Shown: in pieces, positions 1-62,581 of the stretch
Position numbering within the stretch: the first letter of the stretch is position 1
How the letters are laid out: every line of letters starts with the position of its first letter
NCBI GenBank assembly: GCA_045533115.1
Contig: JAZSHF010000005.1
Coordinates: 3,268 to 67,267 of the forward strand
Reading direction: 5' to 3'
Origin: Eubacteriales bacterium
Lineage (GTDB): Bacteria; Bacillota; Clostridia; Oscillospirales; CAG-272
DNA length: 64,000 bases
Position numbers and translations under genes: made by a program
Notes under the pieces: generated by a model
What the model saw: the letters and a program-made list of their open reading frames with translations, nothing else
Databases searched by the model: none
Told to the model about the DNA's origin: nothing

Positions 1-66
1 CATCCTAACCTCATCCGTCACCTGCGGTGACACCTTCCCCAAGGGGAAGGCTTATTTGCGTTCATC
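1..66. repeat. Right arm of a mosaic hairpin repeat, cut by the window edge (box CCTCATCC, hairpin GTCACCTGCGGTGAC, hairpin CCTTCCCCAAGGGGAAGG, tail CTTATTTGCGTTCA)
   Basis: The same arm and tail recur at 2835-2868. The family recurs at about 19 loci in the window. Confidence 0.8.
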
Positions 67-88
67 TGATTACACAAGTTGATCTGGG

Positions 89-385
89 TTTTCCACAGGT
101 TTTCCCCTGTGGAAAACTTTTGCGTCGGCTCTGAAATTGCGGTATCGGTTATGGAAAACCGTCGCCATTTTCAATTTTTTGCCTTTTATACAGGGAAAAT
201 TCACTTTACTGTGGAAAAGTTTTGCACATTTTTCAGGGTTATCCACAGTTTTATCAACAGAAATTTCTGTCTTTTCGTGTTGTAAAGCGTCAAAATATCG
301 GCTTTACGCACTGTTTTGTCGGGTGTACCTCAAAAGTTTTCCACAGAATCGGTCATATTGTGGAAAACTTATTTTGTTTTCCACA
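89..385. promoter_or_regulatory. Cluster of nine DnaA-box-like 9-mers downstream of gyrB
   Basis: TTTTCCACA at 89-97, 337-345 and 377-385. TGTGGAAAA at 108-116, 210-218 and 359-367. A perfect TTATCCACA at 239-247. TTATCAACA at 251-259. TATGGAAAA at 150-158. Both orientations are present within about 300 bp of non-coding DNA. Confidence 0.75.
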
Positions 386-520
386 TTTGTGTTTTTGGGG
401 TTGTGAATAAATGAATATTTGCGTATTATTGAGGATTGTATGTAGAACTGATGCTTGCTTTTACCGTCTCTACTACGCTCACTCTATCGCGGTCAACTAA
501 ATGCTTCGCCGCATTCCCTT

Positions 521-667
521 ACCTTCTCCAGTGGGAGAAGGTGCCGAGTGTAACGAGGCGGATGAGGTGTACGGGTATAATGTGACATCTCTTTGGCATA
601 CGGTTGCTCCGCAACCTACACCTCATCCGTCAACCTTCGGTTGACACCTTCTCCCGCTGGAGAAGGT
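521..667. repeat. Complete mosaic hairpin repeat (left arm H1-H2-GGATGAGGTGT, centre, CTAC-type hairpin, right arm ACACCTCATCC-GTCAACCTTCGGTTGAC-H1)
   Basis: ACCTTCTCCAGTGGGAGAAGGT at 521-542 pairs with CACCTTCTCCCGCTGGAGAAGGT ending at 667. The box and its reverse complement are both present. Confidence 0.85.
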
Positions 668-745
668 CAATAACGTGGCGCATTTTCTCAACATAGCGGT
701 GTATTATTCACACCCTACGGTGTGGCTAAAATTTGTAATGTTATA

Positions 746-2868
<2,123 letters not shown>

Positions 2869-2886
2869 CTTTAATTTTATAAATAA

Positions 2887-3123
2887 TTATTCAACTCTGC
2901 CGATGAGGGCTTGCGTTGATATCTGGGAAAAGTATACTTTTCCGTCGTTTGTGAGTATAAATGACTTCGGGACTTCTTCAAAAAGCGCTTCTGTCATACC
3001 GTTTTTTTCTCTACCCTTGAGAAATTTTTTCGTATCGGCAGATACGGTTGCCGTATCCATATCGAAGATGCCGATTATGTTTTTAAGGAGTAGATTTTTG
3101 TTGTTTCCTGCATGTAAGAACAT
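2887..3123 (-). CDS. DUF370 / RemB(YaaB)-like small protein
   Basis: 78-aa ORF between recF and gyrB, the position of remB/yaaB in Bacillus. Contains the IIGIFD...S motif typical of that family (from memory). Confidence 0.75.
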   Translation of the reverse strand: MFLHAGNNKNLLLKNIIGIFDMDTATVSADTKKFLKGREKNGMTEALFEEVPKSFILTNDGKVYFSQISTQALIGRVE

Positions 3124-3179
3124 ACTGCGTAGGCCTTTCTTTTTTATCTCATATTTTCACAAATGTTTATAAATTCATT

Positions 3180-3248
3180 GTAGGTGCGATCATTGGTCGC
3201 CCGAAAAATTGCCTTAAGAATGGACGGGCGACCAATGGTCGCCCCTAC
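3180..3248. repeat. REP doublet (inverted pair of GTAG + GGGCGACCA hairpins)
   Basis: GTAGGTGCGATCATTGGTCGCCC at 3180-3202 and GGGCGACCAATGGTCGCCCCTAC at 3226-3248, separated by a 23-nt spacer. Confidence 0.85.
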
Positions 3249-3274
3249 AATAACAGGGTTAATCTTCTGAAATT

Positions 3275-4342
3275 TTAATTTACAACCCCGTTATTTACGT
3301 CATAAACCTTACAGGGTGTATCAATTTTATCGCAGGACGTGATAATTACCTGCTTATTTTCGATACCGGAGAGGAGATATTCGCGTCTTTTTTCGTCAAG
3401 CTCACTCAGAATATCGTCAAAGAGGAACACGGGATAGGTTCCGCTGATCTCGCGTGAAATTTCGCCCTCGGCGATCTTCATTGAAAGAGCAACCGATCTT
3501 TGCTGTCCCTGCGAGCCGAAGGACCGAGCCTCGCGGCCGTTCAGCATTATTTCTATATCGTCCTTATGAGTGCCGTAGAGTGTCGCGCCGAACCGAAGCT
3601 CACGGTCACGGTTTTCATTAAGCAGCGAAAGATATTCTTCCTTCGTTTTTCGCGTCTGATAGGTCAGCTTAACACTTTCTTTACCCGCCGTCATATCGTT
3701 TATTATCTCATCTGCCGAAACGCTCAGGCGCGATATATAAATATCACGCTTTTCCGAGATAATTTCAGCCTCGGCGGCAAGCTGCTCGGCGTAAACGTCG
3801 GAAAGCAGGAAAATATTATCATCTCGGCGGTCACGCGCCATTTTTATAAGCGCGTTTCGCTGTGAAAGAAACGCGTTATATCTCTGAAGCGACCTTAGAT
3901 ACTCGGTATCGGTCTGTGACAGGGCATTGTCTATAAATTTTCGTCTTACCGACGGGCCGTCCTTGACTATCGACAGATGCTCGGGGCAGAAAAGCACGGC
4001 GCGGAATTTTCCGACGACCTCGGATAGGCGCGTTATGGGAGCTCCGTTCAGCGAGCAAAACCTTTTTCCGAGCCGAGGCACGAAGCGGAAAAGCATTTCG
4101 TTTTCGCGCTTGCCGTCGAAAAAGGTCATTTCTATCTGTCCGTATTCAGCCCCGAAGCGTACAAGCTCGTTTTCGTGCACCGTACGGAAGGATCGCCCTC
4201 CCGCGAAGAAATACACTCCTTCGAGTATATTCGTCTTTCCCTGCCCATTTAAGCCGTTAAAAACGGTAACTGTGGGTGATATTTCAAGTGACGCCTCTTC
4301 GATATTACGAAAATTCTTATATACGAGCTTACGGCAGATCAT
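3275..4342 (-). CDS. recF: DNA replication/repair protein RecF
   Basis: 355-aa ORF with the Walker A motif GLNGQGKTN and the SMC-like signature FGSQGQQRS. Overlaps the dnaN stop by 4 nt. Confidence 0.96.
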   Translation of the reverse strand: MICRKLVYKNFRNIEEASLEISPTVTVFNGLNGQGKTNILEGVYFFAGGRSFRTVHENELVRFGAEYGQIEMTFFDGKRENEMLFRFVPRLGKRFCSLNGAPITRLSEVVGKFRAVLFCPEHLSIVKDGPSVRRKFIDNALSQTDTEYLRSLQRYNAFLSQRNALIKMARDRRDDNIFLLSDVYAEQLAAEAEIISEKRDIYISRLSVSADEIINDMTAGKESVKLTYQTRKTKEEYLSLLNENRDRELRFGATLYGTHKDDIEIMLNGREARSFGSQGQQRSVALSMKIAEGEISREISGTYPVFLFDDILSELDEKRREYLLSGIENKQVIITSCDKIDTPCKVYDVNNGVVN

Positions 4343-5481
4343 CCGTTAAGACGAACGGGGAGAATGAGGAGTAAGAACTTGCTCGGACTGTCCGACGCTT
4401 CCTCGACCGTCATACTCATAAGAGGAGAGGTAAGGCAGAGCTTAATTCTCTCGCAGTCACATACCTTGATAGCGTCGTATAGGAAGCGGCAGTTGAAGCC
4501 GATCTCAATGTCCTCACCCTCGTGGTGAACGGAAATTACATCGTTTACGCGTCCCGTGACCGACGAGGAAGCGATAGTAAGCTGTCCTTCCTTAACGGTG
4601 CAGATAACGGGGCTCGGAATCTGTCCCTGACGTCTTTCTTCAGTTACGAGAAGAGCTCTTTCAAGGGCAGAAAGGAGATCTGAGGTATCAAGTGTAACGA
4701 ATATCTTGGGCGATTTGGGGATAAAGCGGTCGTAATCAATATACTGCGCGTCAATTCTTCTCGTAAAAAGAACGAATCTTCCTATGAAGAATATGATGTG
4801 CTTACGGGCAACGTAAATTTCCATTTCCTTATCGCTGTCGGAAATGAATCTCATAAGCTCGGAAATACTCTTACCCGGGATAATTACGTCAAAAGCAAGC
4901 TCACTTGTACCGACGCTTTCCATCGGCTCGGTCTCGGTCACGACCGAAAGACGGCTTCCGTCGCAGGAAACTGCCGAAAGGACTCCGTCCTCGACCTTGA
5001 GGTCAAGACCGTTAAGCTCGGGCTTTACGGAATTAACGGCGATAGCGAACTGTGTTTTCTGAATAATTGCGCGAAGCGCGTCCTGACGGATTTTGAATCC
5101 ACGGTCGCCTCTTAGCTCCGGCAGATCGGGAAAATCGGACGCCGAGAGCGCATAAAGCTCAAATTCCGACGTTCCTGCCGATATCTTTGCCTTTAGGTTG
5201 CTTTCGTTGATTTCAATCGTAAGAAGTCCGTCGGGCATTGCCTTTATTATCTGAATAAATCTCTGGCAGTTGATAATTCCCGCGCCGCCTTCCTCGACGA
5301 TACAGGTAACGGTCGTTTTCATACCCTTTTCAAGGTCGTAAGCGGTAAGCTCACAGGTATCGTTTGATATTGTTTTAAGAAGGATACCCTCGATCGACGC
5401 GATCGTGTTTTTGTTTGACGCAAAGCCCACTGAGGGGATAGCCGCCTCGAGAATTTCGTTTTTCATTACCTTGATCTTCAT
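4339..5481 (-). CDS. dnaN: DNA polymerase III beta sliding clamp
   Basis: 380-aa ORF with the three-domain clamp length, directly downstream of dnaA. Confidence 0.95.
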   Translation of the reverse strand: MKIKVMKNEILEAAIPSVGFASNKNTIASIEGILLKTISNDTCELTAYDLEKGMKTTVTCIVEEGGAGIINCQRFIQIIKAMPDGLLTIEINESNLKAKISAGTSEFELYALSASDFPDLPELRGDRGFKIRQDALRAIIQKTQFAIAVNSVKPELNGLDLKVEDGVLSAVSCDGSRLSVVTETEPMESVGTSELAFDVIIPGKSISELMRFISDSDKEMEIYVARKHIIFFIGRFVLFTRRIDAQYIDYDRFIPKSPKIFVTLDTSDLLSALERALLVTEERRQGQIPSPVICTVKEGQLTIASSSVTGRVNDVISVHHEGEDIEIGFNCRFLYDAIKVCDCERIKLCLTSPLMSMTVEEASDSPSKFLLLILPVRLNG

Positions 5482-5605
5482 TTTTTTGTTCCTTTCGTTC
5501 CGAGCTTCATTCGGACTCTGTCAATTTTTCTTTTCGCGCGCAGCGCGTCAGAAAGAAATAAATAATAATATTTTAAGTAGGTATATCAGTAGGTGCTGTT
5601 GGAAT

Positions 5606-5800
5606 TGTGGATAAGCCTGAAAACCGTTATGCCAAACTGCTTTTCGGGGGGTAAATGTCGAAATTTGTCTGTGGATAAGCTGTTCGATTTTTTGAAAGTT
5701 GTCCACATGGGGATAATGTGTTGATAAGCTGGGGAAAAATGTTGATAATTTTTGAATTAAAATAGAATTATCTACATTATAGGTAATATTTGCCACGTTG
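5606..5800. promoter_or_regulatory. oriC-type DnaA-box cluster with AT-rich tract in the dnaA-dnaN spacer
   Basis: Perfect TGTGGATAA at 5606-5614 and 5670-5678. One-mismatch boxes at 5699-5707 (TTGTCCACA), 5719-5727 and 5740-5748 (TGTTGATAA), and 5768-5776 (TTATCTACA). AT-rich stretch at 5745-5790. Confidence 0.8.
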
Positions 5801-5804
5801 TCTT

Positions 5805-6237
5805 ACCTTCTCCTTAGGGAGAATGGGGGCCACCGAAGGTGGTGGATGAGGTGTTACATAGGTAATGAATTTTTTCTTAACTTTTCTTACTCGTGTAAGA
5901 AAAGTTACAAAAGAACCACGCCAAGGGGCAAACCGGTTTGAATTTTGCCTTCGCAAAATTCTGCACACGTTTTCCCCTTTGGAAACCCCTTTCCTTTAAG
6001 GAAGATTTGTGACGTTTCATCGTAGGGCGGGGGCTTGCTCCCGCCGTTGCAAAGAAAAGTAACATCGTTTTTGTGCGGGCGAGCAATGCTCGCCCCTACG
6101 AGAGAGTTTGGAATTTCATTGTAGGGGCGACCAATGGTCGCCCGTTTTCGTGGCGGTTTAATGCGTGCGACCATTGGTCGCACGTTTTAAGTAAAGTAAC
6201 ACCGCTTTGGAACGGCGGGAGCAAGCCCCCGCCCTAC
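5805..6237. repeat. Composite repeat block: left-arm half element, a 130-bp family-E copy, and five REP hairpins
   Basis: Left arm at 5805-5867. Family E at 5878-6004. REPs at 6022-6045 (GTAG GGCGGGGGCTTGCTCCCGCC), 6077-6099 (GGGCGAGCAATGCTCGCCC CTAC), 6121-6143 (GTAG GGGCGACCAATGGTCGCCC), 6165-6183 (a degenerate copy) and 6214-6237 (GGCGGGAGCAAGCCCCCGCC CTAC). Confidence 0.85.
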
Positions 6238-13028: not shown

Positions 13029-13253
13029 ATGAACGCAGAGGTCGAAAAAAGGATCGGCAAAAACATTCGGGAATTGCGCGAACGCGCGAAAATGACGCAG
13101 GAGGAGCTGGCGGCGAAGCTGCAAATCCGCGGTTGCGATATTACCCGCAGCGCCGTTGCAAAGATCGAGGTCGGTCAGCGTCACCTTTACCCCGATGAGA
13201 TCGTTCTGATAAAAGAAATCCTTTCCGTCAGCTATGACGAAATATTTGATTAA
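13029..13253 (+). CDS. XRE-family helix-turn-helix transcriptional regulator
   Basis: HTH signature IRELRERAKMTQEELAAKL......S..AKIE.G. I chose the start at 13029 (RBS AAAAGAGG). The track's 12837 start would overlap the lipoprotein gene and the promoter region. Confidence 0.85.
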   Translation: MNAEVEKRIGKNIRELRERAKMTQEELAAKLQIRGCDITRSAVAKIEVGQRHLYPDEIVLIKEILSVSYDEIFD

Positions 13254-13273
13254 AAATAAAATTGGCGATTATA

Positions 13274-13768
13274 ATGGAAAATGAATTACCGAAGAGGAAA
13301 CAGAATCGTTTACGAAGGTATGATTACAGCTCTTGCGGCGCATATTTTATTACGATATGCACGTTTGAAAGGCGCAATTATTTTTGGGATAACCTTGTAG
13401 GGGCGACCATTGGTCGCCCGAGTGACGTTGCGTTGTCTCAATACGGAAAAATTGTTGATGAGGCGATAATCGGTATATCCTCAATATACCCTGCGTTGTC
13501 TATCGAAAAATACGTGATCATGCCTAATCACGTTCATTTGTTATTAAGAATACGTGCCGACGAATTCGGGCGACCAATGGTCGCCCCTACAATTTCGCGG
13601 ATTGTAAATCAGTTTAAGGGATACGTTGCGAAACGAACAGAAAAGAACATCTGGCAAAAATCCTTTCACGACCACGTTATCCGTAATTATGAGGATTACG
13701 AAGAACATATAAAATACATCCACGAAAACCCAGCTCAGTGGTACTTCGACGAGTTATATTCAGAATAA
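13274..13768 (+). CDS. REP-associated tyrosine transposase-like protein (IS200/Y1 HUH superfamily)
   Basis: HUH motif in IMPNHVHLLL (HVH codons at 13529-13537) and a C-terminal Tyr helix, YIHENPAQW. About 165 aa, with no IS ends. The start could be ATG 13274 or TTG 13262. Confidence 0.8.
   Translation: MENELPKRKQNRLRRYDYSSCGAYFITICTFERRNYFWDNLVGATIGRPSDVALSQYGKIVDEAIIGISSIYPALSIEKYVIMPNHVHLLLRIRADEFGRPMVAPTISRIVNQFKGYVAKRTEKNIWQKSFHDHVIRNYEDYEEHIKYIHENPAQWYFDELYSE
13397..13420 (+). repeat. REP unit inside the RAYT-like CDS (GTAG + GGGCGACCATTGGTCGCCC)
   Basis: GTAGGGGCGACCATTGGTCGCCCG, in frame and encoding VGATIGRP. The same unit occurs at 19740-19762; 6121-6143 carries the same stem with the opposite loop (AA). 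Confidence 0.9.
13567..13590 (-). repeat. Inverted REP unit inside the RAYT-like CDS
   Basis: CGGGCGACCAATGGTCGCCCCTAC, in frame and encoding GRPMVAPT. It is the exact reverse complement of 13397-13420 and matches the intergenic copy at 3226-3248. Confidence 0.9.
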
Positions 13769-13797
13769 AAAGCAGAGCCGAACGGCTCTGCTTTTTA
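13767..13797. terminator. Bidirectional intrinsic terminator
   Basis: AGCAGAGCCG-aa-CGGCTCTGCT flanked by AAAA and TTTTT. Lies between convergent genes. Confidence 0.8.
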
Positions 13798-19350: not shown

Positions 19351-19426
19351 TGGCGCGCCCTAGAGGATTCGAACCTCTGACCTACCGGTTCGTAGCCGGG
19401 CACTCTATCCGCTGAGCTAAGGGCGC
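19351..19426 (-). tRNA. tRNA-Arg (anticodon ACG), CCA encoded
   Basis: The reverse complement GCGCCCTTAGCTCAGCGGATAGAGTGCCCGGCTACGAACCGGTAGGTCAGAGGTTCGAATCCTCTAGGGCGCGCCA folds as a cloverleaf with anticodon loop CTACGAA. Confidence 0.93.
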
Positions 19427-19471: not shown

Positions 19472-19543
19472 GTGATTTTGAAAAATAATTAAATTTGTTT
19501 TTGACGGGAGGGGAGACGCAGAGAATTATCGGAACGCCGTTAT

Positions 19544-19707
19544 ACCTTCTCCGGCGGGAGAAGGTGGCGGCGAAGCCGACGGATGAGGTGTCAAAGAGTA
19601 TATCAAAGCGAATGTAATGAGCTTTGACAATTTCTTTGCTCTCTGAATTGGGAACCTACTCCTCATCCACCACCTTCGGTGGTCCCCCTTCTCCCTCAGG
19701 AGAAGGT
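19544..19707. repeat. Mosaic hairpin repeat
   Basis: ACCTTCTCCGGCGGGAGAAGGT GGCGGCGAAGCCGAC GGATGAGGTGT ... CTCCTCATCC ACCACCTTCGGTGGT CCCCCTTCTCCCTCAGGAGAAGGT. Confidence 0.85.
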
Positions 19708-19739
19708 AAGATATTGCGGCGAAGCGTTCAAACGTTCTC

Positions 19740-19809
19740 GTAGGGGCGACCATTGGTCGCCCGCTCGTTAGTGATGCAATTTTTGCGGGCGAGCAATGCT
19801 CGCCCCTAC
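19740..19809. repeat. REP doublet with two different stems
   Basis: GTAGGGGCGACCATTGGTCGCCC at 19740-19762 and GGGCGAGCAATGCTCGCCCCTAC at 19787-19809. Confidence 0.85.
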
Positions 19810-19853
19810 AAAACCGTGTCAAAACATTCAAACGCTCCCGTATGGGCAAAACG

Positions 19854-25694: not shown

Positions 25695-25927
25695 CCTTCC
25701 CCTTTGGGAAGGTGTCAACCGATAGGTTGACGGATGAGGTTAGCCGTCGCAGACGGCGTTACCAAAGGAAAGTAACATTGTTTTTGTGCGGGAGGGGAGC
25801 CCCTCCCCTACGGAGATAGAGGGGACGCTGTTAGCCTTCCCCTTGGGGAAGGTGTCGGTCGAAGACCGACGGATGAGGTGTAGGCTGCAACGCCGCCATA
25901 CGGAGGTGTCACGAACGTTGTCTTCCT
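25695..25927. repeat. Two left-arm modules with one REP between them
   Basis: First left arm at 25695-25760, then the connector AAAGTAACATTGTTTTTGT, then REP GGGAGGGGAGCCCCTCCC CTAC at 25790-25811. Second left arm at 25835-25900. Confidence 0.85.
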
Positions 25928-29308: not shown

Positions 29309-29467
29309 AAAAAGACCCTCGCAGAACGAGGGTCATCTTTTCTTCAAATTAACTCTCATCTGCCCGGATTTGGCACCTTTTTGGTTTATTTTGGGCGTTT
29401 ATCACGCTTAAACCAAATGGTTGTCGGGCTTCACAGGGCCGGTCCCTCCGCCACTCTTGATAAGAAC
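29309..29467 (-). promoter_or_regulatory. SAM-I (S-box) riboswitch with terminator, in the metK leader
   Basis: The minus strand reads TTCTTATCAAGAGTGGCGGAGGGACCGGCCCTGTGAAGCCCGACAACC...GGTGCCAAATCCGGGCAGATGAGAG. The terminator GACCCTCGTTCTGCGAGGGTC followed by TTTTT comes next. Confidence 0.9.
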
Positions 29468-45302: not shown

Positions 45303-45417
45303 CCTTCTCCGGCGGGAGAAGGTGACGCCGAAGGCGTCGGATGAGGTGTAGGTTGCGAAGCAACCGTATGCCAAAACAAAGTAACATCATTTTTGTGCGG
45401 GCGACCATCGGTCGCCC
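45303..45417. repeat. Left arm, GTAG hairpin, connector and REP (half mosaic)
   Basis: CCTTCTCCGGCGGGAGAAGG TGACGCCGAAGGCGTC GGATGAGGT GTAGGTTGCGAAGCAACC ... AAAGTAACATCATTTTTGT GC GGGCGACCATCGGTCGCCC. Confidence 0.85.
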
Positions 45418-45433
45418 GTCTGTTTAACTTCAA

Positions 45434-62494: not shown

Positions 62495-62581
62495 GCGGGT
62501 ATGGCGGAATTGGCAGACGCGCTAGATACAGGTTCTAGTGACTTCACGGTCATACAGGTTCAAGTCCTGCTACCCGCACCA
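62495..62581 (+). tRNA. tRNA-Leu (anticodon CAG), class II with long variable arm, CCA encoded
   Basis: GCGGGTATGGCGGAATTGGCAGACGCGCTAGATACAGGTTCTAGTGACTTCACGGTCATACAGGTTCAAGTCCTGCTACCCGCACCA. The anticodon stem is CTAGA/TCTAG and the loop is TACAGGT. Confidence 0.85.

Follow-up and report, generated by a model that had tools for sequence, protein, structure and literature searches.

An in-frame inverted pair of REP hairpins bracketing the HUH motif of a clostridial RAYT gene: a probable compact REPtron

Why should a transposase gene carry in frame, on either side of its own catalytic motif, the hairpins that its product is presumed to recognize? The question is raised by an open reading frame (ORF) in a 64,000-nt stretch of DNA, here called the window, from a Eubacteriales bacterium (Oscillospirales, CAG-272; GCA_045533115.1, contig JAZSHF010000005.1, positions 3,268–67,267 of the forward strand). 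The ORF encodes a protein of the REP-associated tyrosine transposase (RAYT, or TnpAREP) type and contains two copies of a repetitive extragenic palindrome (REP), one in sense orientation before the HUH motif and one in antisense orientation after it. We consider it probable that this gene is a compact REPtron, in which the ORF itself houses the cognate REPs usually found on either side of a RAYT gene and they are kept there at the level of the DNA. The arrangement is a family trait whose position, polarity, and frame are fixed; within each gene the paired copies vary together, they match nearby intergenic REPs, and they are inversely associated with flanking REPs. An earlier sequence-only reading of the window implied that REPs within the gene were peculiar to this locus, which is not so: in-frame REPs in tnpAREP genes have been known from subclass 2.4 since 2018 (Quentin, Siguier, Chandler, and Fichant 2018, BMC Genomics; PMC6006769), and what is new is the split pair that brackets the HUH motif, together with its constraint. 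The parts of the gene are as follows.

13274–13768, + strand: RAYT/TnpAREP-like Y1 HUH transposase ORF, 164 aa from the ATG (168 aa from an alternative TTG start at 13262).
13395–13421, + strand: segment 1, a sense REP made of GTAG and an 8-bp stem, GGGCGACC/GGTCGCCC, with the loop ATT; translated as VGATIGRP, aa 42–49.
13529–13537, + strand: codons of the HUH catalytic motif, H86 V87 H88, within IMPNHVHLLL; H86 and H88 are invariant in an alignment of 54 homologues.
13566–13592, − strand: segment 2, an antisense REP and the exact reverse complement of segment 1; translated as GRPMVAPT, aa 99–106.
13652–13684, + strand: WQ...DH..R segment (W127, Q128, D133, H134, R137), the counterpart of the GTAG-binding residues of E. 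coli TnpAREP.
13715–13732, + strand: catalytic Tyr motif YIHENP, with the Y-x-x-x-NP signature of class 2 TnpAY1 proteins; Y148, I149, N152, and P153 are invariant in the alignment.

The motifs IMPNHVHLLL and YIHENP lie in this ORF where the sequence-only reading had placed them. Residues are numbered here from the ATG at 13274; the length of 165 aa and the segments 46–53 and 103–110 given in that reading mixed two start codons and become 164 aa, 42–49, and 99–106. The 24-mer GTAGGGGCGACCATTGGTCGCCCG at 13397–13420 and its exact reverse complement at 13567–13590 do both fall inside the ORF, and the full perfect inverted repeat that contains them is in fact 27 nt long (13395–13421 and 13566–13592) and encloses the HVH codons. 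The spacer between the two segments is 146 nt of coding sequence that contains the catalytic motif.

By profile, sequence, and fold matches, the ORF encodes a RAYT/TnpAREP-type Y1 HUH protein, in agreement with what its motifs had first suggested. The protein matches the NCBIfam model REP_Tyr_transpos (NF047646; 1.7e-19, 70.2 bits, below the 80-bit cut-off) and the Pfam model Y1_Tnp (PF01797; 21.8 bits, below the cut-off of 23), and significant scores under both curated cut-offs are what we would expect for a divergent clade; the NCBIfam model transpos_IS200 scores only 18.9 bits. The sole significant solved relative found by sequence is E. coli TnpAREP (4er8, E = 1.1e-8). The same structure is the top Foldseek match (4er8_A, E = 1.9e-7, template modeling score 0.61, root-mean-square deviation 2.3 Å) of the AlphaFold2 model of the protein (predicted local distance difference test, pLDDT, 82.7), and IS200/IS605 transposases come next. 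The residues of E. coli TnpAREP that bind GTAG are W94, Q95, E100, H101, and R104, and the Y-x-x-x-NP signature is that of class 2 TnpAY1 (PMC6006769). In the sequence alignment these five residues of 4er8 correspond to W127, Q128, D133, H134, and R137 of the ORF, of which W127, Q128, H134, and R137 are invariant among the 54 homologues and D133 is present in at least 90% of them.

Both REP-coded peptides fall in linkers between secondary-structure elements of the model, so that part of the suggestion that they occupy tolerant surface loops stands. Segment 1 forms the tip of a β-hairpin between β1 (residues 23–30) and a long helix (56–71) and is a low-confidence loop (pLDDT <50 for aa 42–48). 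Segment 2 is confidently modeled and adds no loop: it lies in the linker from the HUH strand (86–93) to helix αC (107–122) and aligns with residues 69–76 of 4er8, just ahead of R78, K81, K82, and Q83, which in E. coli TnpAREP contact the REP hairpin (PMC3479197). In the alignment this β3–αC linker is only three residues longer than that of the E. coli protein, so segment 2 overwrites the normal linker and adds no domain.

Relatives of the protein form 3,948 clusters at 90% identity (E ≤ 1e-5); clustered at 50% identity, they number 6,897 at E ≤ 1e-10 and 19,759 at E ≤ 0.001. They come mainly from Oscillospiraceae, Ruminococcaceae, Acutalibacteraceae, and unclassified Clostridia in gut and rumen samples, and the clade, which is centered on Oscillospirales (Clostridia) and whose closest TnpAY1 group is subclass 2.4, is abundant in gut and rumen Clostridia. 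For comparison we collected 170 loci (L- and P-numbered labels below denote these loci and homologues), which gave 166 unique near-full-length genes of 36–92% identity; the HUH motif was located in 164. A metagenome scan yielded only relatives of 35–57% identity, and the DNA of closer relatives was collected protein by protein. Both REPs, sense before the HUH motif and antisense after it, are present in 108 of the 164 genes; 12 have the upstream REP only, 20 the downstream REP only, and 24 neither. The median start of the upstream REP is 132 nt ahead of the HUH motif (interquartile range 129–134) and that of the downstream REP is 39 nt past it (34–43), and the opposite orientations are rare (eight cases each). 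The reading frame is nearly as uniform: GTA/GGN (Val-Gly) in 118 of 126 upstream REPs and xCT/ACx (Pro-Thr) in 109 of 134 downstream REPs, with CTA/C in 22.

Within this fixed frame the sequence of the REPs turns over. There are 60 distinct in-gene REP types. Sense and antisense copies of one gene have on average 1.39 differences in 22 positions (44 of the 108 pairs are identical), as against 9.45 for copies from different genes. Across lineages the peptides at the two sites are unrelated (VGTDVLDGP and GPSRTSVPT, VGRGALTPP and GGVRAPRPT, VGEGLCALP and GGDGTPPLQ), and despite this GTAG, the hairpin, and the reverse complementarity of the two sites persist in the DNA, GTAG being invariant in the in-gene REPs. 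The alignment of homologues, proposed as a check by the sequence-only reading, thus points to a feature of the DNA. The near-fixed position, polarity, and frame and the co-variation of the copies argue for one old arrangement with sequence turnover, not for many independent insertions; a local colonization event, as that reading had entertained, does not fit an arrangement conserved in all three respects across 36–92% identity. It is present in more than 100 independent assemblies, including the cultured Gemmiger formicilis MCC627, and close homologues are each flanked by different neighboring genes.

Constraint on the nucleotides themselves is measurable. Among 10 genes of 62–92% identity, codons for the same amino acid differ in 14.5–17.5% of pairwise comparisons inside the REPs versus 43–44% outside them, and in four loci (L002, L161, L165, and L169) both REPs are 0% diverged, with 11–31% divergence in the remaining regions of the gene. 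A variant read as VGAIIDRP, GTAGGGGCGATCATTGATCGCCC, carries paired C>T and G>A changes that preserve the stem and are non-conservative in the protein (Thr>Ile and Gly>Asp). Another variant, CGTCC, is found in both arms of L163, L166, and L167, where it places a G·T pair in each hairpin and preserves exact reverse complementarity between the arms. Decay is seen at the upstream site of L168, where seven positions have changed with the length unaltered, and a new REP is present at the N-terminus. The paired changes and the decay in L168 indicate that each hairpin is maintained locally, as is the identity of the two copies, and that a lapse is visible when it occurs. Quasipalindrome template switching is an established mutational mechanism, and it may yield coordinated changes in a hairpin without selection on each of them.

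The in-gene hairpins are also those of the genome around them. At three or fewer mismatches the 24-mer occurs nine times in the window and not once in 100 dinucleotide shuffles, and its most frequent variant is the in-gene sequence. Seven of the nine copies lie outside the gene, all between ORFs, as three inverted doublets and a solo element:

3180–3248, no strand assigned: inverted REP doublet, GTAG ends outward, 21-nt spacer.
6076–6144, no strand assigned: inverted REP doublet, GTAG ends inward, one arm with a compensatory GAGC/GCTC stem.
19740–19809, no strand assigned: inverted REP doublet, GTAG ends outward.
45395–45418, + strand: solo REP-like hairpin of the same family, lacking GTAG.

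The claim that the in-gene palindromes represent the genome's own GTAG REP type is therefore borne out by seven intergenic copies. The intergenic positions first listed (3180–3248, 6121–6143, and 19740–19762) do belong to this family, and that list had missed two doublet partners (in 6076–6144 and 19740–19809) as well as the solo copy. These doublets have spacers of 21–22 nt and fit the REPIN pattern; the in-gene pair, which had been called a REPIN-like doublet, has a 146-nt coding spacer, and no second copy of that unit was found. The closest REPs outside the gene end at 6144 and start at 19740, more than 6 kb away on either side, where a conventional REPtron has REPs within about 1 kb on both sides. 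We considered whether the intergenic doublets are internal-deletion derivatives of the gene and rejected this, as their spacers share nothing with the regions adjoining segments 1 and 2.

How the in-gene REPs relate to those nearby was assessed in the flanks of the collected loci, with all RAYT paralogues masked and a cognate copy defined by at most two mismatches in a 22-mer. A gene's own REP type reaches a density of 0.59 copies per 10 kb in the flanks of that gene, compared with 0.048 at non-cognate loci, an approximately 12-fold difference, and in L163 and L164 the adjacent "double-foot" and single REPs carry the CGTCC variant of the in-gene copies. The pair also persists where nearby copies are lacking: of the loci with 15 kb or more of flank, 30 hold zero cognate copies and retain their in-gene REPs, close homologues keep the same palindromes with no intergenic copy within 10 kb on either side, and L002, L161, L165, and L169 have perfectly conserved in-gene REPs and no cognate copy in ~75 kb of flanks. 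Perfectly conserved in-gene REPs in loci devoid of nearby copies make overwriting from a dense REP population a less likely cause of their conservation.

Immediately beside the gene the relation is inverse. Among 113 genes with 600 nt on both sides, flanking GTAGG hairpins are found at 10 of 12 genes that have no in-gene REP (mean 4.0) and at 19 of 81 that have at least two (mean 0.52; Fisher p = 1e-4), and on clusters of 60% identity at 8 of 9 and 12 of 47, respectively (p = 6e-4). The flanking REPs share the polarity of the in-gene pair, with 40 sense versus 18 antisense upstream and 42 antisense versus 18 sense downstream. Plasmid searches gave few matches and served as out-group examples of canonical flanking REPs: relatives from Leptolinea, Fulvitalea, Spirosoma, and Kovacikia (27–32% identity) have REPs on both sides of the gene and none inside. 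The inverse relation, the shared polarity, and the canonical arrangement of these distant relatives lead us to view the locus as a REPtron in which the REPs at the boundaries have been relocated to the interior of the ORF.

Taking these observations together, we hypothesize how a compact REPtron might operate. The REPs would be written in frame into two permissive linkers, the β-hairpin tip after β1 and the linker between the HUH strand and αC, with the polarity of the usual REPtron, in which GTAG is on the coding strand upstream and on the other strand downstream. By analogy to E. coli TnpAREP, the enzyme would recognize 5′-GTAG plus a hairpin in single-stranded DNA, reading segment 1 on the coding strand and segment 2 on the opposite strand. 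Purifying selection may retain the in-gene copies as the enzyme's resident recognition sites, which would hold the enzyme and its REP type together, allow the two to evolve jointly, and perhaps influence expression by feedback. Changes that preserve both hairpin and pair could come from template switching at quasipalindromes or from gene conversion. In its strongest form, this proposal makes the pair a functional cis-element under purifying selection, in which the same nucleotides would encode part of the enzyme and its own recognition sites, replace the flanking REPs, and serve as master copies that link enzyme and REP type through transfer and co-evolution, perhaps with an autoregulatory role. 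We offer this functional form tentatively, as possible rather than probable.

Several points weigh against a pair kept at the DNA level for a function. The pairwise comparisons of synonymous sites are phylogenetically non-independent, as is the gene-level test of the trade-off between in-gene and flanking REPs, which on clusters of 50% identity gives p = 0.24 with too few units; a count of covariation within the hairpins is circular, the sequences having been chosen for forming hairpins, and we do not rely on it. The added length of segment 2 amounts to no new loop, and some constraint at the protein level may be involved, for example if Pro-Thr caps the helix. Conservation may also stem from continual homogenization by a distant REP population. 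A third in-frame REP is found at the N-terminus in L168 (10214) and L169 (10184), the N-terminal addition being a complete doublet in some homologues, doublets occur within one loop in L047 and P0169, and both loops can hold tandem REP expansions (up to three copies) or short repeated peptides, L021, L047, P0126, P0212, and P0169 being among the carriers of extra or tandem REPs. Such additions indicate that insertion into the RAYT gene is frequent and is tolerated, as a purely parasitic process would also predict.

That process is the most durable of the alternatives, and Quentin et al. (2018; PMC6006769) understood the in-gene REPs in essentially this way: REPs would be repeatedly inserted or converted in the gene of the enzyme, either as its nearest single-stranded target or through a tendency of REPs to insert beside REPs, would survive in tolerant loops, and would be overwritten from the genomic population with no role of their own. 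The extra and tandem REPs that these loops and the N-terminal end hold in L021, L047, L168, L169, P0126, P0212, and P0169 are in keeping with it, as are the disordered loop at segment 1, the identity of the in-gene copies with the commonest intergenic variant in the window, the variants that L163 shares with adjacent copies, and the published view that such insertions have little impact on the protein (PMC6006769). It does not account for position, polarity, and frame that are fixed across 36–92% identity, for in-gene and flanking REPs that are related inversely and not positively, or for perfectly conserved REPs in four diverged genomes with ~75 kb of flanks free of cognate copies; moreover, the upstream site of L168 decayed quickly once constraint lapsed, which implies that the other sites must be actively kept. 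We therefore regard tolerated insertion as unlikely, if still a serious contender.

A second alternative, autoregulation at the RNA or DNA level, we consider improbable. In the mRNA the arms would anneal to one another or each adopt a local fold, and the resulting long duplex would limit translation or draw a double-strand-specific RNase; alternatively, the enzyme would bind the hairpins of its own transcript or gene to throttle its synthesis. The potential for pairing is considerable, in that the 218-nt in-gene stretch folds with a 29-bp long-range stem at −96.9 kcal/mol (z = −8.3 against shuffles as RNA and −7.2 as DNA), and the variant of L163, L166, and L167 weakens the local hairpin (G·T) and keeps arm-to-arm complementarity perfect; REP hairpins have also been proposed to down-regulate RAYT expression (PMC3733652). 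In L002, L161, L165, and L169, however, the arms differ at three positions and each local hairpin is perfect, so that arm-to-arm pairing is not preserved there. Pairing in RNA does not need the invariant GTAG and leaves the strong polarity bias unexplained, and an intragenic duplex would be unwound by translating ribosomes.

A third, that the inverted REPs bound a mobile or invertible cassette, a REPIN-like unit of ~195 nt around the HUH core that is excised, inverted, or exchanged as an on/off switch or a shuffled module, is very hard to sustain. It draws on a tract of the gene (window 13323–13602 and L001 10050–10329) in which only 2 of 280 nt differ (99.3% identity), with 12–23% divergence elsewhere in the gene and an end ~12 nt past segment 2; the pattern resembles that of a tract of recent recombination or conversion. 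The cassette draws further on in-frame short alleles without the HUH core, from independent samples, whose junctions lie in or near the REPs. In L174 (2937–3230, an allele found in independent samples and also in L175) nearly everything between the outer REP ends is gone, at the junction TGGGAC/GCCCCTAC, and in L176 (2133–2504) an intact upstream REP is followed by a remnant of the downstream REP, the HUH core being gone. Against a cassette, an inverted core was found in none of the 170 loci (no gene gave matches on mixed strands), every other close pair shows a core about as diverged as the remaining gene sequence, the left edge of the near-identical tract lies 74 nt upstream of segment 1, and the deletion junctions are at non-equivalent REP positions. 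Finally, an ordinary conserved protein motif that is palindromic in DNA by accident, or a chance or assembly artefact, has a negligible probability in our estimation: V42, G43, A44, R48, P49, G99, R100, A104, P105, and T106 are indeed invariant or nearly so among close homologues, but the divergent peptides, the constant GTAG hairpin, the co-varying pair, and the near-fixed frame rule out a protein motif, as do constrained synonymous sites and the subset of genes that reads the downstream REP in another frame, and the empty shuffles and the breadth of assemblies, cultured strain included, speak against chance or artefact.

Returning to the compact REPtron, we compared it with systems already described. 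In subclass 2.4 the in-gene REPs were reported as additional to flanking ones, in a variable region that is peripheral, has little impact on the protein, and was treated as neutral (PMC6006769). The ORF resembles that subclass as a class 2 Y1 HUH protein with NH[IFV]H and WQ motifs and with an in-frame GTAG REP in the β3–αC linker, as seen in segment 2; the clade likewise has β3–αC linkers of variable length with tandem repeats, and "double-foot" REPs lie beside the L163 homologue. It differs by one position in the Tyr motif (YIHENP versus YIxNNP) and has ~30% identity to the classical member from Leptolinea. In 120 classical 2.4 relatives that we checked (query NHFH, WQR, YIINNP), all REP-coded peptides come after the HUH motif (RGDRPVAPT, VGAHGRAPL, VGATGRSPL, and doublets such as VGANGVCP...GECHSPL), and the hairpin tip is a REP-free DGEM. 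The clostridial clade, in contrast, has a REP before the HUH motif (120 of 164 genes) and one after it as a conserved inverted pair, so its N-terminal half is not REP-free, and its in-gene REPs mostly replace the flanking ones and show measurable constraint at the nucleotide level. Full-text literature searches found no later paper describing an in-gene REP pair that brackets the HUH motif, and the surveys of Bertels and Rainey (2011; PMC3116915) and Bertels et al. (2017; PMC5581495) scored only extragenic flanking 16-mers and would not have counted in-gene copies.

Single-stranded DNA carrying 5′-GTAG and a hairpin is bound by E. coli TnpAREP, which cuts it close to that site (Messing et al. 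2012; PMC3479197). The ORF protein shares with it (4ER8) the fold, the HUH and Tyr motifs, the GTAG-binding residues, a low copy number and, by analogy, presumably the 5′-GTAG hairpin substrate; the E. coli gene, 26% identical at the protein level, is instead flanked by REP clusters with none inside, and the bulged, imperfect stems of E. coli REPs contrast with the perfect 8–9-bp stems and 3-nt loops found here. REPIN-RAYT systems likewise combine a single-copy RAYT gene with cognate intergenic inverted doublets. REPs and Rickettsia palindromic elements have been described in frame in other genes (Di Nocera et al. 2013; PMC3733652), where palindromic repeats, often dimers, are tolerated in coding sequence; those hosts are unrelated genes, mostly of replication and repair, whereas here the host encodes the presumed REP-reading enzyme and the sites are conserved family-wide. 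The IS200/IS605 insertion sequences (IS608, ISDra2) have a related Y1 HUH fold and subterminal hairpins with a 5′ guide tetranucleotide recognized in single-stranded DNA, but they are multi-copy, their two hairpins lie outside tnpA on a single strand, and their Tyr motif is Y...Q, none of which applies here.

This clade bears on the role of RAYTs, on the recognition of REPs, and on the reason why REPs and RAYT genes stay adjacent. With the cognate REP inside the gene, enzyme–substrate pairs can be read from single genes, even on short metagenomic contigs, and if the functional cis-element reading is true there would be more than 60 natural pairs, each gene stating its own substrate. Co-evolution of enzyme and REP, the determinants of specificity in the protein, and the need for REPs in cis become directly testable, and the inverse relation with flanking REPs says that one resident pair is kept. 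The main value of the clade is as a natural enzyme–substrate library and a handle on why REPs stay beside RAYT genes.

Around the gene itself, which is single-copy in the window and flanked by an XRE gene and a terminator as the sequence-only reading described, the neighboring features are these:

13029–13253: XRE-type helix–turn–helix gene upstream of the RAYT gene (Pfam HTH_3, 1.1e-10).
13766–13797, no strand assigned: terminator-like hairpin shared by the RAYT gene and the convergent downstream gene; not a REP.

An XRE-type gene also lies directly upstream in L001 (9727–9984), where the XRE pair is 33% identical and the RAYT pair 92%. We rejected the XRE gene as a conserved partner, since it is found only in the window and L001 and not at other homologous loci. 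A block of ~5.7 kb (window 31–5746) is shared with L001 (266–6103) at 85–92% identity, inverted and differently spaced relative to the RAYT gene, which indicates that the region was rearranged between the two genomes.

The other REPs of the window show further structure. Rfam holds no family for these elements. The doublet at 6076–6144 recurs nearly unchanged at a non-syntenic site in the related genome of L001 (11285–11380). Common to both genomes (6040–6144 in the window) are a left flank, AAAGTAACATCGTTTTTGTGC, and a spacer of 21 nt, GAGAGAGTTTGGAATTTCATT; the recurrence of flank and spacer with the doublet indicates a mobile unit bigger than the bare REP. This left flank also adjoins the solo copy at 45395, which lacks CTAC. 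A single GTAG hairpin of a different type, GTAGGGGAGGGGCTCCCCTCCC, at 25790–25811 (− strand) belongs to the class of the in-gene REPs of the RAYT paralogues L038 and L077, which suggests a second RAYT/REP system elsewhere in the genome. Several genomes hold two or three diverged RAYT paralogues within ~10 kb, each with its own in-gene REP type (L163 16130–16648, L167 2158–2652, L045, with three genes, and L097). Mechanically called ORFs of 92 and 107 aa (5905–6183 and 19526–19849, both − strand) span REP doublets and are probably spurious frames made by the repeats. Such palindromes call for caution in annotation, as they give rise to spurious short ORFs and to "peptide motifs" (VGA...RP, GRP.VAPT) whose conservation reflects DNA structure and not protein function. 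The window also contains a SAM (S-adenosylmethionine) riboswitch at 29353–29466 (− strand) and two tRNA genes at 19354–19426 (− strand) and 62495–62578 (+ strand), with the REP doublet at 19740–19809 lying ~300 nt from the first tRNA gene.

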